Of a DNA stretch of 32,000 nucleotides, positions 5,778 through 25,325 are shown piece after piece. The notes beneath the pieces are model-generated. The model was not told where the DNA came from. It did no database searches and worked only from the letters and a program-made list of their open reading frames with translations. The stretch is from assembly GCA_039920285.1 (NCBI GenBank), contig JBDSDX010000001.1:540001-572000 (forward strand), written 5' to 3'. Source of the stretch: Candidatus Saccharimonadota bacterium. GTDB lineage: Bacteria; Patescibacteriota; Saccharimonadia; Saccharimonadales; Saccharimonadaceae. Each line of letters opens with the position of its first letter. The first letter of the stretch is position 1. Position numbers and translations under genes: made by a program.

Positions 5778-6338
5778 ATGGCTGACCAACGAAATAACAA
5801 TGGCCCACGTGGACGACGCGAACAAGCGCCGGCGGAGCCAAAACAATTTGAAGAGCTCGTTATCAACGTCGACCGTGTGTCTCGTGTGGTAAAGGGTGGA
5901 CGACGTTTCCGCTTCAAGGCTCTTGTCGTTGTGGGTGACCACAAAGGTAAAGTCGGTGTCGGTGTTGCTAAGGGTGCTGACGTTCAAGTCGCCATTGCTA
6001 AAGCAACTGACGTCGCTAAAAAGAACCTGATCGTTATTCCAATCATCAACGAAACCATTCCTCACGAAAATGAGGTTAAATACTCTGGTGCACGTGTGCT
6101 TTTGAAGCCTGCTGCTCCTGGTACCGGTATCATTGCTGGTGGTGTGGTTCGATCAATTATTGGTGTGACTGGTATCCGAAACTTGCTTTCGAAATCACTT
6201 AATTCAACCAATAAGGTAAACATCGCGTATGCGACAGTAGAAGCGCTCCGAAGTCTTGTTCCTAAGGACGAATGGCTCAATGCACCAAAGAAGAAAGCGG
6301 TTGCTGAAAAGCCTGCAAAAACTGAGGAGGCTGCGTAA
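5778..6338 (+). CDS. rpsE: 30S ribosomal protein S5
   Basis: The ATG at 5778 gives MADQRNN...VINV.RVS.VVKGGRRF.F.ALVVVGD..G.VG.G.GKA. The track start at 5640 lies inside rplR. Confidence 0.95.
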   Translation: MADQRNNNGPRGRREQAPAEPKQFEELVINVDRVSRVVKGGRRFRFKALVVVGDHKGKVGVGVAKGADVQVAIAKATDVAKKNLIVIPIINETIPHENEVKYSGARVLLKPAAPGTGIIAGGVVRSIIGVTGIRNLLSKSLNSTNKVNIAYATVEALRSLVPKDEWLNAPKKKAVAEKPAKTEEAA

Positions 6339-6820
6339 TGACTAAGTATAACGAACTCGACCTGACCGCAAACCGCGATCGCAAACGTGTTGGCCGTGGA
6401 ATCTCAGCTGGTGGTGGTAAAACCGCTGGCCGTGGTACTAAAGGACAGGGTGCACGTACAGGTAAAAAACTAGGTCCAACATTTGCTGGTGGTCAACGTT
6501 CACTCGTTGCAGCAGTGCCAAAGGCTCGTGGGTTTAAGAGTCGCCGTACTCCTGCTCAAGTTGTCTATCTCGATCACTTAAATGCTTTCAAAGGTAAGAC
6601 TGTCGATAACTTTGTATTGTTCGAAGAAGGCTACATCGCCTCAGCGTTCACAGCAACAAAGGTCATCGCACGTGGTGAATTGACTGAAAAAGTCACACTA
6701 CATGTCGCAGGAGCAAGTAAAAGCGTTGAAGAAGCCATCAAAAAAGCTGGTGGCGTATACGTAAAAACTCCTGTTCCACTTCGCCAAAGCACCAAAGAAG
6801 CTGAAGCAACAGACAAGTAA
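6338..6820 (+). CDS. rplO: 50S ribosomal protein L15
   Basis: 160 aa with L......R.RKRVGRG...G.GKT.GRG.KGQ. Its ATG overlaps the rpsE stop (TAATG), leaving no room for rpmD. Confidence 0.94.
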   Translation: MTKYNELDLTANRDRKRVGRGISAGGGKTAGRGTKGQGARTGKKLGPTFAGGQRSLVAAVPKARGFKSRRTPAQVVYLDHLNAFKGKTVDNFVLFEEGYIASAFTATKVIARGELTEKVTLHVAGASKSVEEAIKKAGGVYVKTPVPLRQSTKEAEATDK

Positions 6821-6837
6821 CACTTTACTTATCTATA

Positions 6838-6866
6838 TAAACACGCTCTCCGGGGCGTGTTTTATG
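6838..6866 (+). terminator. Rho-independent terminator after rplO
   Basis: Stem AACACGC (6840-6846) pairs with GCGTGTT (6855-6861) across a tctccggg loop, followed by TTTAT. Confidence 0.7.
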
Positions 6867-6895
6867 TTGCGTGTATGAAATTATTAGGGTATAGT
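6867..6895 (+). promoter_or_regulatory. Sigma70-like promoter driving the rplO-secY spacer RNA
   Basis: TTGCGT (6867-6872), a 17-nt spacer, then TATAGT (6890-6895). The predicted TSS is near 6902. Confidence 0.55.
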
Positions 6896-6901
6896 TTGCC
6901 A

Positions 6902-7395
6902 CATGATTCGCGCCCTCGGGAGTGATGATGCCAACGCAGAGTAATAAAAGGCGAAGGTTTCGTGGAAACGTCCAAAAAAATAAGCCGATATCGGCGCCAG
7001 ACCAGAGAGGTCATTTGGACGGTTAACTGGGTCAGAGAGAATGGACGGCGGATACATCTGAGATACTTCTCGATGCTTCACCGCTGTTAGTTCCTCGCTC
7101 GATGCGCACGAAGGCCATTCACGGGTAAGGGGAGTGTCGCCCCCTAGAGACGTGATAAAAACCGAGTTAAAGGAAACGCTCGGGCTGGAAAATATCGGGC
7201 ATGTGACAAGGCCAGTGTCGAGAGTGGGCTCTCCGCTGCTCACACCCTGTCGACGGATGATCGACCGCCCTCCTGCGAGACTGGAGATTAACGACGCATT
7301 CCTTCCGGAAGTGTACGTCGTGGGTGGGGCTTGGCTTAATCGTCAACGCCCCACCCGAATATTCAATTAATACAACGCCTGATTGGCGTTTTTGT
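6902..7395 (+). ncRNA. Structured non-coding RNA; best guess is a divergent, expanded RNase P RNA
   Basis: The region is bracketed by the promoter and terminator listed here, has no credible ORF, and is hairpin-rich with locally higher GC.
Colinear blocks resemble RNase P conserved regions:
- GTGGAAACGTCCAA (6962-6975), compared with GAGGAAAGUCCGGG.
- CAGAGAG (7033-7039).
- GGTAAGGG (7124-7131).
- CAAGGCCA (7207-7214).
- TTGGCTTA (7331-7338), compared with CCGGCUUA.
The putative P4 shows a compensatory change, CCAA/TTGG. No covariance-model search was run. Confidence 0.45.
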
Positions 7396-7398
7396 TTG
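7374..7398 (+). terminator. Rho-independent terminator of the spacer RNA
   Basis: AACGCC (7374-7379), loop tgatt, GGCGTT (7385-7390), running into TTTTTGTTTG. Confidence 0.7.
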
Positions 7399-7425
7399 TC
7401 CCGTCGACCGAGCCTGTAGTATAAT
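7396..7425 (+). promoter_or_regulatory. Sigma70-like promoter for secY
   Basis: TTGTCC (7396-7401), an 18-nt spacer, then TATAAT (7420-7425), about 50 nt upstream of the secY ATG. Confidence 0.5.
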
Positions 7426-7474
7426 GACTGTAAAGAGTTACTAACCTGAGAATAGATAAGACAGAAATCGACCG

Positions 7475-8887
7475 ATGAATTGGAAAACAATCTTTAGATC
7501 ACTCAAAAACCGCGACATGCAAAAGCGGTTGCTTATTGTATTAGCAATTGTTGTTGTCTACCGTTTACTCTCACATATACCTGTGCCGTTGGCGCAACCG
7601 ACTGAGCTTCGTGAGGTGATCAATAGTGTGGTGAGTAGTACCGACTTTGGTGGGTTCTTAAACCTCCTGACCGGTGGCGCGTTGTCGAGCTTCTCAATTG
7701 TCCTGGTAGGTATGACACCGTTCATTACCGCCTCTGTTATTACGCAACTTTTGACGAAAGCTATTCCGCGTCTCGAAGAACTTCATAAAGATGGTGAATC
7801 TGGTCGTCGTAAGATCAACCAGTGGACTCGTTTCGTGACTGTACCTCTCGCGATTGTCCAATCTATTGCCTTTATCTACATCCTTCGTGAGACTGTCCTC
7901 GCGGGTAATACGACTGTTCTTGCAAATGCGACGACTATAGAATGGGTTGTCGCGGTAACAGCTATGACGGCTGGCTCAGTCTTGCTGATGTGGCTTGGAG
8001 AGTTAATTACTGAGCAGGGTGTCGGTAACGGTATTAGCTTGATTATTTTCGCGGGTATTATCAGTCAACTTCCCTCAATGCTTTCAACGATCGTCACATC
8101 GCTATTTGATACAAGTGCAGGTTCACTGAATGTCTTCAATTGGTTTACACTACCGGTGAATCCATTAGTGTTCGTGGTGACGATAGCCATCGCTCTCGTG
8201 TCTTTAATACTGCTCTATGTACTGGTGAAGATCAACGAAGCACAACGCATCATCACGGTTAACTATGCAAAGCGTGTCCAAGGTAATAGTAATTATGGTG
8301 GCGTGAAGAGCATTCTCCCAGTTAAGCTTATTGCTGCCGGTGTGATCCCCGTCATCTTCGCCGTTGCATTCTTGTCACTACCAGCCTTCCTAGGACAGGT
8401 TCTAAAGGCCACAGGCAACCCTGCATATCTCGAACTGGCTAATAACTTGATTCTCTGGTTCCAGGCCCCTTCACCGGGCAAATTCACGGGTTCAACGCTC
8501 CAAGCGTTCATTTACCCAGGTGCATACTTCGCCCTCGTTATCATGTTTACGTATTTCTATACTGGAATTGTCTTTAATTCAAATGAAATCGCCGAGAACC
8601 TTCAAAAACAGGGTGGCTTCATTGAAGGTGTTCGCCCAGGTAAAACAACCGAAAAGTATCTGACGACAACCGTTAATCGATTGATCTTATTCGGATCACT
8701 CGTACTGGGTCTCATCGCAGTTACTCCATTCCTCGCTGAATACATGCTATATCACTTCGCGGGTATTTCCGGTACGAACCTCTCAATTGGTGGTACAGGG
8801 CTTCTCATCGTGGTCTCTGTTGGTCTTGAATCGCTTCGACAGATCAACTCACGTGCTCTTATGGTTACGTACGACGACTACAAGTAG
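7475..8887 (+). CDS. secY: Preprotein translocase subunit SecY
   Basis: 470 aa, polytopic. The N-terminus ...RLLIVLAIVVVYRLLSHIPVP and the GISLIIFAGI motif are typical of SecY, and the synteny position after rplO fits. Confidence 0.97.
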   Translation: MNWKTIFRSLKNRDMQKRLLIVLAIVVVYRLLSHIPVPLAQPTELREVINSVVSSTDFGGFLNLLTGGALSSFSIVLVGMTPFITASVITQLLTKAIPRLEELHKDGESGRRKINQWTRFVTVPLAIVQSIAFIYILRETVLAGNTTVLANATTIEWVVAVTAMTAGSVLLMWLGELITEQGVGNGISLIIFAGIISQLPSMLSTIVTSLFDTSAGSLNVFNWFTLPVNPLVFVVTIAIALVSLILLYVLVKINEAQRIITVNYAKRVQGNSNYGGVKSILPVKLIAAGVIPVIFAVAFLSLPAFLGQVLKATGNPAYLELANNLILWFQAPSPGKFTGSTLQAFIYPGAYFALVIMFTYFYTGIVFNSNEIAENLQKQGGFIEGVRPGKTTEKYLTTTVNRLILFGSLVLGLIAVTPFLAEYMLYHFAGISGTNLSIGGTGLLIVVSVGLESLRQINSRALMVTYDDYK

Positions 8888-8982: not shown

Positions 8983-9543
8983 ATGATGGCACCCAAACAG
9001 CCGTCTCACCAGACCTTGCGGGAGCTCCGCGAGATCACTAAGCCGCTTCAAGCGATCAACCACCAGCGCGAAGCACTCATACTGAGCGTCCAGCGCCTGC
9101 GTCATGACACCATCATGATGGCAGATGGTCGCGAGGTCGGACGTTACCGTGGCGACATGACGAGAGTGCGCTCGAAGGCCAAGCTTCAGAAGAAGAAAGC
9201 CAAGGTGTTCACGGAGATCGAATGGCTCGCCAAATGCGGTGAGCTGTCGAAGAGCTTCCACTACAGCTACCCGGTCGGCCAGCGACGTGCTGCCCACATG
9301 GTCAACTACGCCATGCAGGACGGCTACCAGCTGCCCGGAGAGTGGGCTGACATCATCTGGCTTGTCCAGGGGTGGGAAGATCGCATCAACTTCCGTAACC
9401 GTTACACAGATCAGCGCGTCATCATGACGCCTGGAATGAGCACGGAGACGCGGGAGAACGGCTCGCTACCGACAATCTACTTTGAGATGGTCACCATCGA
9501 GGAGTATGAGCTTCACCGCAAGTCGGAGCACGTCGCCGCATGA
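8983..9543 (+). CDS. Hypothetical protein (186 aa), compositionally foreign; I recognise no family
   Basis: GAGGAG lies 5-6 nt upstream of ATGATG. The ORF spans the whole high-GC patch, where four hand-counted 60-nt lines gave 58-65% GC. GAG/AAG/CTG/CGC-type codons dominate, unlike the neighbouring genes. The antisense ORF 8968-9297 looks like a GC shadow. Confidence 0.6.
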   Translation: MMAPKQPSHQTLRELREITKPLQAINHQREALILSVQRLRHDTIMMADGREVGRYRGDMTRVRSKAKLQKKKAKVFTEIEWLAKCGELSKSFHYSYPVGQRRAAHMVNYAMQDGYQLPGEWADIIWLVQGWEDRINFRNRYTDQRVIMTPGMSTETRENGSLPTIYFEMVTIEEYELHRKSEHVAA

Positions 9544-18145: not shown

Positions 18146-18230
18146 TGGTGCTGGAAGTAGGACTCGAACCTACGGAGCCTTACGGCGGGAGATTTACAGT
18201 CTCCTGTGATTGCCACTACACGATTCCAGC
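18146..18230 (-). tRNA. tRNA-Tyr (anticodon GUA), class II long variable arm, CCA encoded
   Basis: Hand-folded cloverleaf:
- Acceptor GCTGGAA/TTCCAGC.
- Anticodon stem GGAGA/TCTCC with loop CTGTAAA.
- T-arm GTAGG-TTCGAGT-CCTAC. Confidence 0.95.
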
Positions 18231-18235
18231 TAATC

Positions 18236-18312
18236 TGGAGCCGCTTCTCGGATTCGAACCGAGGACCTACTGTTTACAAAACAGTTGCTCTAACCAACTG
18301 AGCTAAAGCGGC
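18236..18312 (-). tRNA. tRNA-Thr (anticodon UGU), CCA encoded
   Basis: Hand-folded cloverleaf:
- Acceptor GCCGCTT/AAGCGGC.
- Anticodon stem ACTGT/ACAGT with loop TTTGTAA.
- T-arm CTCGG-TTCGAAT-CCGAG. Confidence 0.95.
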
Positions 18313-18330
18313 ATACACTCTATTTTAGCA

Positions 18331-18406
18331 TGGAGCCGCGATCGGGAGTTGAACCCGAGACCTCATCCTTACCATGGATGCGCTCTACCAACTGAGCTAT
18401 CGCGGC
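18331..18406 (-). tRNA. tRNA-Thr (anticodon GGU), CCA encoded
   Basis: Hand-folded cloverleaf:
- Acceptor GCCGCGA/TCGCGGC.
- Anticodon stem CATCC/GGATG with loop ATGGTAA.
- T-arm TCGGG-TTCAACT-CCCGA. Confidence 0.95.
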
Positions 18407-25250: not shown

Positions 25251-25325
25251 AGGGGCATAGTACAACGGTTAGTACATAGGTCTCCAAAACCTAGGATCGT
25301 GGTTCGATTCCACGTGCCCCTGCCA
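25251..25325 (+). tRNA. tRNA-Trp (anticodon CCA), CCA encoded
   Basis: Hand-folded cloverleaf:
- Acceptor AGGGGCA/TGCCCCT.
- D-arm GTAC..GTAC.
- Anticodon stem TAGGT/ACCTA with loop CTCCAAA.
- T-arm CGTGG-TTCGATT-CCACG. Confidence 0.95.

Follow-up and report, generated by a model that had tools for sequence, protein, structure and literature searches.

Stand-alone bacterial RNAs of about 0.5 kb whose structure is backed by covariation are few, and several of them have proved to be ribozymes, ribonucleoprotein cores or large assemblies. Here we analyse a candidate RNA gene of this size in the gap between rplO and secY (6867-7398) of a 32,000-nucleotide (nt) stretch of DNA from a metagenome-assembled genome of a Candidatus Saccharimonadota bacterium (Saccharimonadales, Saccharibacteria/TM7; assembly GCA_039920285.1, contig JBDSDX010000001.1, positions 540,001 to 572,000), which we call the window and whose own numbering is used throughout. 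Among the closest described systems are the OLE (RF01071), ROOL, GOLLD and raiA motif RNAs, which are multi-helix non-coding RNAs (ncRNAs) of about 0.5 kb with their own transcription signals, with covariation and with a restricted taxonomic range. The element resembles them in each of these respects, and as with them the sequence gives no evident function. It differs from them in having no match in Rfam 15, in that only a module of 170-220 nt is conserved and few unpaired nucleotides are, and in being fixed in the ribosomal-protein/secY cluster, whereas RNAs of those types lie near phage, tRNA or oap genes.

Three other systems are close in part. Like the class A RNase P RNA (RF00010), the element is several hundred nucleotides long, appears as a stand-alone gene with many helices, and has five short strings in the order of the Escherichia coli M1 RNA motifs; unlike that nearly universal RNA, it is clade-restricted and seemingly dispensable, and has no model match and no conserved CR-I, CR-IV/V (conserved regions I and IV/V) or P4. 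The 6S and Ms1-type RNAs, which are non-essential, change fast in sequence while keeping their structure, act in trans and depend on shape, serve as our working analogy for mechanism, although the element does not form a rod with a central bubble as 6S does, is more than twice as long and is without an Rfam match. Trans-acting small RNAs (sRNAs) with C-rich seeds, such as RsaE, likewise have a promoter of their own, an intrinsic terminator and, upstream of a conserved hairpin, a run of unpaired C-rich sequence, but the element is three to five times longer and conserves its helices, not a seed. A literature search returned no description of an RNA between rplO and secY in Saccharibacteria or Patescibacteria.

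A predicted non-coding gene between rplO and secY

The genes of the locus are ordered rpsE, rplO (6338-6820), secY (7475-8887), an open reading frame (ORF) without assignment, infA, rpmJ, rpsM, rpsK, rpsD, rpoA and rplQ. The gap between rplO and secY measures 654 nt (6821-7474), close to the 650 bp given in an earlier, sequence-only reading of this DNA. From 5' to 3' it contains the rplO terminator, a promoter-like site and about 495 nt in which no ORF is conserved, followed by an intrinsic terminator and by the promoter of secY. The G+C content of the element is 0.54-0.55, against about 0.45 in the flanks. The folding energy of the gap relative to shuffled sequences is low on both strands (z = -3.1 for the + strand and -2.6 for the - strand), and because the two z-scores are alike, folding energy alone cannot decide the strand.

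We compared the locus with 160 loci anchored on SecY, from genomes and metagenomes, and with further loci reached through L15 proteins; related loci carry labels from L001 to L169. The nearest SecY relatives of the window are metagenome-assembled genomes of Saccharibacteria and Microsaccharimonas. The window element can be aligned over its full length with three other distinct lineages, L162/L163 (GCA_028286325.1), L001 and L164/L165, and the Logan contig L161 is identical to the window throughout the gap. Searches of the whole spacer with blastn and nhmmer gave matches in the four closest lineages only. No paralogue of the element was found in the window or at other loci, and no tandem or long direct repeats within it.

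None of the ORFs in the gap has a Pfam match. Among the window, L162, L001 and L164 the translated similarity is equal in several frames and on both strands and switches frame, the mismatches between the window and L162 are spread over the three codon positions (47/40/50), and the indels among close homologues are mostly not multiples of three, so that every reading frame is broken. On these comparisons the element is non-coding, as the sequence-only reading had held. The element is conserved nevertheless well above fourfold-degenerate sites: these are 37-52% identical between the same genomes in rplO and secY, which is near saturation, whereas the 3' module described below is 63-70% identical in all pairs of the close genomes. 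In the 5' domain the window shares 72% identity with L162 and 44% with L001.

The conserved 3' module

The conserved part of the element is a module of about 170 nt with six helices, which was defined with two covariance models (R1 and R2). Its features are as follows.

7204-7375, + strand: 3' module, six helices H1-H6
7210-7213 with 7227-7230, + strand: H1
7249-7253 with 7261-7265, + strand: H2
7270-7273 with 7283-7286, + strand: H3
7291-7296 with 7316-7321, + strand: H4
7299-7302 with 7307-7310, + strand: H5
7322-7335 with 7342-7356, + strand: H6, a GC-rich hairpin of 14 bp with C7347 bulged and a 6-nt loop

R1 was built from four close sequences over 7204-7375 and picked up L107, L091, L083 and L111, each with a weak match in the gap that is full-length and on the + strand. 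R2 adds three of these distant sequences. Matched along the whole length of the model, the window itself reaches 135-171 bits. R2 gives 111-151 bits for its input sequences and the remaining close relatives, and its new matches are L087 (56 bits), L111 (41), L004 (37), L096 (27) and L005 (27). With filters off, L099, L085 and L093 are matched at E<0.003, and weak, correctly placed matches appear in L166, L089 and L092. In all there are about 15 distinct copies of the module, and every credible R2 match is full-length, on the + strand and within the rplO-secY gap, while R2 has no match in 96 other loci (582 kb).

To assess the pairing we used an alignment of 12 distinct sequences (A7), in which 92.1% of the 406 pair cells are standard pairs and 27 of the 37 pairs show double changes; this alignment was fitted to the model and is therefore biased towards the structure. 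None of 500 shuffles equals the observed value on four of five measures, the figure for further pair types being 2 of 500, and control structures with partners shifted by one to three columns are 39-49% paired with at most eight double-change pairs. A structure-blind MAFFT alignment of the H2-H5 region of the 12 sequences still supports H2 (the GTCGA/TCGAC pairing at 7249-7265 picked out by the sequence-only reading), with 84% of cells paired and double changes in five of six pairs, against 20-48% pairing in the slid controls. The comparison of spacers among relatives that this reading had called for thus shows a conserved and covarying 3' module. The pair cells include 31 G-U and 14 A-C combinations, and the excess of G-U over A-C therefore favours the + strand; pairing is 92% when read on the + strand and 88% on the - strand.

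In H6, the 9-bp helix of GGGTGGGGC (7322-7330) with GCCCCACCC (7348-7356) is lengthened by the pairing of TTGGC (7331-7335) with GTCAA (7342-7346). This extension is TCGGC/GCCGA in L001 and L164, and in other clusters inserts of up to about 90 nt take the place of the H6 tip. Among the loops of the module, that of one hairpin is mostly GGAA-like and that of another mostly A-rich, and the H6 tip is variable. We found no pseudoknot-like or other stacked pairing among the unpaired columns. A C-rich, apparently unpaired linker lies 5' of H2 in all 11 of the H2-bearing sequences of A7; its sequence is CUCACACCCUG in the window, and relatives have CCUCCCCCUA or CACUCCA instead. A viral contig that matched the H2-H3 motif was rejected, as this was one chance match inside an ORF and not a model match.

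The lineage-variable 5' domain

Upstream of the module lies a domain of about 300 nt that varies between lineages, with these features.

6902-7203, + strand: 5' domain with many local helices
6969-7021, + strand: helix CGTCCAA (6969-6975) with TTGGACG (7015-7021), enclosing hairpins at 6984-6995 and 7000-7012
7120-7154, + strand: central hairpin, its outer stem CACG/CGTG and its inner stem GGGG/CCCC, with GGTAAGGG just before it
7162-7183, + strand: predicted hairpin CCGAG/CTCGG

The module starts 308-383 nt after the rplO stop in 11 of 12 members, and in L107 this distance is 663 nt. The gap has a single long inverted repeat (6966-6976/7014-7024), which coincides with the helix at 6969-7021, whose counterpart in L162 is CGTTCGG/CCGGACG, with two double changes from A-U to G-C; the hairpin enclosed at 6984-6995 is GCCGATATCGGC in the window and GCCAAACATTGGC in a relative. 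The outer stem of the central hairpin is CGGT/ACCG in L001 and L164 (three double changes), and the hairpin at 7162-7183 is CAACG/CGTTG in the same two loci in alignments read by eye. A model of the central hairpins (R3, 7102-7185) matches the four closest relatives and nothing outside the closest cluster.

The SecY protein of L162 is closer to that of L001 (97% amino-acid identity) than to that of the window, yet its 5' domain resembles the window's and not that of L001, and L001 and L164 share a deletion of 44 nt in this domain. The resemblance despite the SecY relationship points to a 5' domain that changed unusually fast in the L001/L164 lineage or was exchanged there by recombination.

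Transcription signals

The element is bounded by the following signals.

6840-6866, + strand: intrinsic terminator of rplO, stem AACACGC/GCGTGTT followed by a T-run; outside the RNA, its upstream boundary
6867-6895, + strand: promoter-like site of the RNA gene, -35 TTGCGT, 17-nt spacer, -10 TATAGT
7374-7398, + strand: intrinsic terminator of the RNA gene, stem AACGCC/GGCGTT with a T-run
7396-7425, + strand: secY promoter, TTGTCC, 18-nt spacer, TATAAT, strong and called by the scanner; outside the RNA, its downstream boundary

The rplO terminator keeps its stem with altered bases in relatives (ACACACC/GGTGTGT), and relatives with short gaps hold nothing between the two genes other than this terminator and the secY promoter. 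The promoter proposed at 6867-6895 by the sequence-only reading stands in part. The string is present and the -10 box is invariant among close relatives, but the -35 box matches at three of six positions, the scanner made no call there and the score of 8 is at the background median. The site gains weight only because of this invariance and because a site scoring at least 9 occurs at the homologous position in 14 of 15 family members, 45-79 nt past the rplO stop, compared with about 15% of random windows. Transcription is predicted to start at about 6901-6903. At the other end, the terminator of the same reading is borne out by a scanner call at 7374-7390 plus the T-run, and a stem with a T-run lies about 15-25 nt 3' of H6 in 14 of 16 sequences; L004 has no clear one and in L111 the T-run is weak.

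The layout is constant across the family: rplO terminator, sigma-70-like site, 5' part, module of 172-223 nt, AU-rich linker, terminator (in most members) and the TGTAGTATAAT box of the secY promoter, which is kept in relatives whether or not they have the RNA. The RNA is set apart from secY in L083/L084 and L111 by extra sequence of about 350-1000 nt, which in L083/L084 includes an ORF of 340 amino acids (aa). A terminator-like hairpin still ends the RNA in these loci, and L083 keeps the terminator even though another gene sits before secY.

Distribution among related genomes

Among the 146 loci that carry both rplO and secY, the gap ranges from 19 to 3742 nt and is shorter than 300 nt in 72. 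A neighbour-joining tree of SecY groups the RNA-positive lineages, all at least 86% identical to the window in SecY, in a single clade; nested within it are the short-gap lineages L081, L095/L105, L086 and L009. As judged from the sequences compared, the family appears to have been passed on vertically within a single Saccharimonadales clade (Microsaccharimonas and relatives), to have stayed at this locus throughout and to have been lost repeatedly.

H6 and the terminator are kept in L093/L094 and L005 despite the loss of other parts of the module, and the module in these loci either consists of separable parts or is decaying.

Comparison with known RNA families

The sequence-only reading had proposed a search with the models of RNase P, tmRNA, SRP and 6S RNA, and this gave no support for any of them. 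At gathering scores, Rfam 15 finds tRNAs alone in the 32-kb window, and thus no rnpB in that stretch, and no RNase P, tmRNA, SRP or 6S RNA in 14 related loci. In sensitive mode (E<=10), the search of 6780-7500 returned terminator-like noise with no RNase P (RF00010/RF00011), tmRNA, SRP or 6S, and the gaps of the distant members L091 and L087 likewise held none of these four. The Rfam 15 models of OLE, ROOL, GOLLD, HEARO and raiA have no match in the window or the 14 related loci, nor in two members at E<=10. ARAGORN found no tmRNA in 6700-7600.

Proposed identity and alternative explanations

We propose that 6867-7398 is a stand-alone + strand gene for a structured ncRNA of about 495 nt with its own promoter and intrinsic terminator, and that this RNA would consist of two parts, a variable 5' domain of about 300 nt and a conserved six-helix 3' module of about 170 nt. 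That the element is an autonomous structured ncRNA of a family absent from Rfam 15 we consider probable from the comparative sequence evidence. The RNA may be trans-acting and work by its shape, offering a platform or scaffold on which a protein or a second RNA binds, and would then be nearer to 6S, Y RNAs or OLE than to a ribozyme or a secY leader. The scaffold role is rated the most likely mechanism, because helices are conserved over single-stranded bases, the H6 tip takes large inserts and fast turnover keeps the pairing, but it is put forward tentatively and is itself doubtful. Taken as a whole, with identity given more weight than mechanism, the account seems to us fairly likely. If it holds, it would add a fairly large structured RNA class to the bacteria of the candidate phyla radiation (CPR), one that is clade-restricted, dispensable and broadly conserved only in its 3' third. 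CPR bacteria have tiny genomes with little spare DNA, and for this reason a structured RNA that a whole clade retains at the same locus is probably useful for the episymbiotic lifestyle.

Several observations weigh against this account. The main covariation count carries the bias of its alignment noted above, and strongly conserved unpaired bases are few. The 5' 300 nt or so cannot be aligned beyond the closest cluster (MAFFT E-INS-i and shared k-mers give no common blocks), so the evidence that the structured RNA spans 0.5 kb comes, for its 5' part, from four sequences. In the window the -35 box is poor and the promoter scanner made no call. The module is partly deleted in some lineages (H2-H5 in L093 and L094, H2-H3 in L005), and these partial deletions together with the repeated losses of the RNA imply that its function, as far as sequences can tell, would be dispensable. 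For the scaffold mechanism in particular, no gene within about 4 kb co-occurs with the RNA.

The sequence-only reading left two options, an unusual rnpB or an undescribed structured RNA, and it is the second that is favoured by the conservation, the frame-breaking indels, the positions of promoter and terminator and the 3' covariation. All the strings it listed are present (TTGCGT-17-TATAGT, GCCGATATCGGC, GGGTGGGGC/GCCCCACCC and the five RNase-P-like blocks), and the five blocks in M1 order, as well as the occurrence in CPR genomes of diverged RNase P RNAs below Rfam thresholds, could suggest that the element is an RNase P RNA that has diverged and expanded. Rfam cut-offs often miss the RNase P RNAs of CPR genomes, but diverged ones are still detected by RF00010 at lowered cut-offs (Lui et al. 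2021, PMC8172020), whereas RF00010 and RF00011 have no match at E<=10 in the gap of the window and in two family members. Blocks 1, 2 and 5 are not conserved even in the closest relatives. The block taken for CR-I, where GAGGAAAGUCC is expected, sits in the local helix 6969-6975/7015-7021 with its compensatory changes and is deleted, at least in part, in L001 and L164; the proposed P4 pairing of CCAA (6972-6975) with TTGG (7331-7334) fails, as its other strand belongs to the covarying tip of H6, which is replaced in other clusters. Better-supported local helices (H6) also contradict the proposed P1 pairing (6923-6929 with 7339-7345). The putative 3' strands of P4 and P1 lie within this hairpin, where TTGGC and GTCAA pair and extend the 9-bp helix to 14 bp. 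ACAGAA (CR-V) is indeed absent before the P4 3' strand, and a regular-expression search for RNase P (CR-I, CR-V) and tmRNA motifs at expected positions found none in 75 long gaps. Finally, a gap of less than 300 nt in about half of the relatives (72 of 146), with losses inside the RNA-positive clade, is unlike an essential gene. Given the local covarying helices and the absence from half of the relatives, RNase P RNA is ruled out for practical purposes, and a tempting mis-annotation is corrected: the ordered motif matches arose by chance, and relatives place these bases in other helices. It is also very improbable, though less so than RNase P, that the element has no RNA function and is a decaying remnant of a gene inserted at a permissive site or a hairpin element acting at the DNA level. 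The gap is a hotspot of unrelated inserts, and at least one gap, that of L010, holds what is left of a minus-strand gene; the element has a patchy distribution and has lost parts in some lineages, and the folding z-scores are similar on both strands. Yet the element has no protein similarity to the insert genes of relatives, its conservation is well above that of fourfold-degenerate sites, it shows many double compensatory changes, its promoter and terminator are kept and G-U pairs exceed A-C pairs.

The remaining alternatives accept a structured RNA and differ in how it would work. Transcription from 6867-6895 could pass a regulated terminator at 7374-7398, making the RNA a cis leader of secY that senses a signal as a riboswitch or a protein-binding attenuator, and the co-orientation, the position directly upstream of secY in most members and the terminator about 100 nt before the secY start would fit this. 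The conserved TGTAGTATAAT promoter between terminator and secY, found also in relatives without the element, argues against such a leader, as do the 350-1000 nt of further sequence before secY in L083/L084 and L111, where a terminator-like hairpin is kept; a conserved alternative pairing with the terminator arm was not seen, and junction bases are conserved too rarely for a ligand pocket, so that we regard the leader as improbable. Gram-positive sRNAs such as RsaE target Shine-Dalgarno sequences with C-rich seeds, and the linker 5' of H2, C-rich and apparently unpaired in 11 of 11 sequences, could pair in the same way with the Shine-Dalgarno regions of targets while the module and terminator give stability or a handle for a protein; the promoter and intrinsic terminator also recall trans sRNAs. 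A base-pairing sRNA is only slightly less improbable than the leader, as the length of about 495 nt is far above that of typical sRNAs, the linker varies in sequence, the unpaired columns yielded neither a pseudoknot nor any other stacked pairing, and conservation lies in the helices, not in a single-stranded seed. More ambitiously, the element might be a new large RNA class of one Saccharimonadales clade with the rank of OLE, ROOL and GOLLD, whose 3' module is the core of a ribonucleoprotein or of a catalytic or assembly-forming RNA and whose 5' domain gives lineage specificity; this is unlikely, if less so than the sRNA.

The rplO-secY junction as an insertion hotspot

Unrelated inserts occupy the longer gaps. 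Some are protein genes, and others are stretches of 420-1300 nt that lack an ORF and sort into several clusters by blastn. Minus-strand insert genes of 218-280 aa are found in L007/L012/L013, L047-L074, L063 and L075, several with a hydrophobic stretch near the N-terminus when inspected by eye, and further insert genes include an ORF of 283 aa in L071/L073 and ORFs of 348 and 279 aa in L023. The 526-nt gap of L010 is without an ORF and retains both ends and translated fragments of the minus-strand gene of L007/L012/L013. By these remains it is a decayed gene and not an RNA gene, and therefore not all ORF-less gaps at this site are the RNA. When proteins from the gaps of relatives were compared by tblastn with the ORF-less gaps, matches were obtained in L010, L033 and L035 and never in the window.

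A sister clade (L112, L114, L125, L137, L103 and L123) carries another unit without an ORF at this site; it has a TTGAC...TAGTATAAT promoter and an AACCTCC...GGAGGTTTTT terminator of its own, and G-rich and C-rich segments that are complementary at long range (GAGGGAGGG ... CCCTCCCTC). R2 has no match in this unit, which could be either a second RNA family or a relative that has diverged very far. In Saccharimonadales the junction of rplO and secY is a hotspot that gathers lineage-specific genes and RNAs.

Downstream of secY, where adk and map usually lie before infA, the window has an ORF of 186 aa (8983-9543) with an unusually high G+C content (0.58-0.60) and no Pfam match. Of about 170 related loci, L105 alone has a homologue of this ORF (49% identity), and the ORF was rejected as a partner protein of the RNA because this occurrence leaves it unlinked to the RNA. 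At the same site, L162 and L164 have an ORF of 139 aa without a Pfam match. Upstream, the rpsE stop overlaps the rplO start (TAATG; 5778-6338/6338) and rpmD (L30) does not lie between them, which matches the known absence of L30 in CPR bacteria. The tRNA genes that are the sole Rfam matches in the window are three clustered at 18149-18406 (- strand) and one at 25251-25322 (+ strand).

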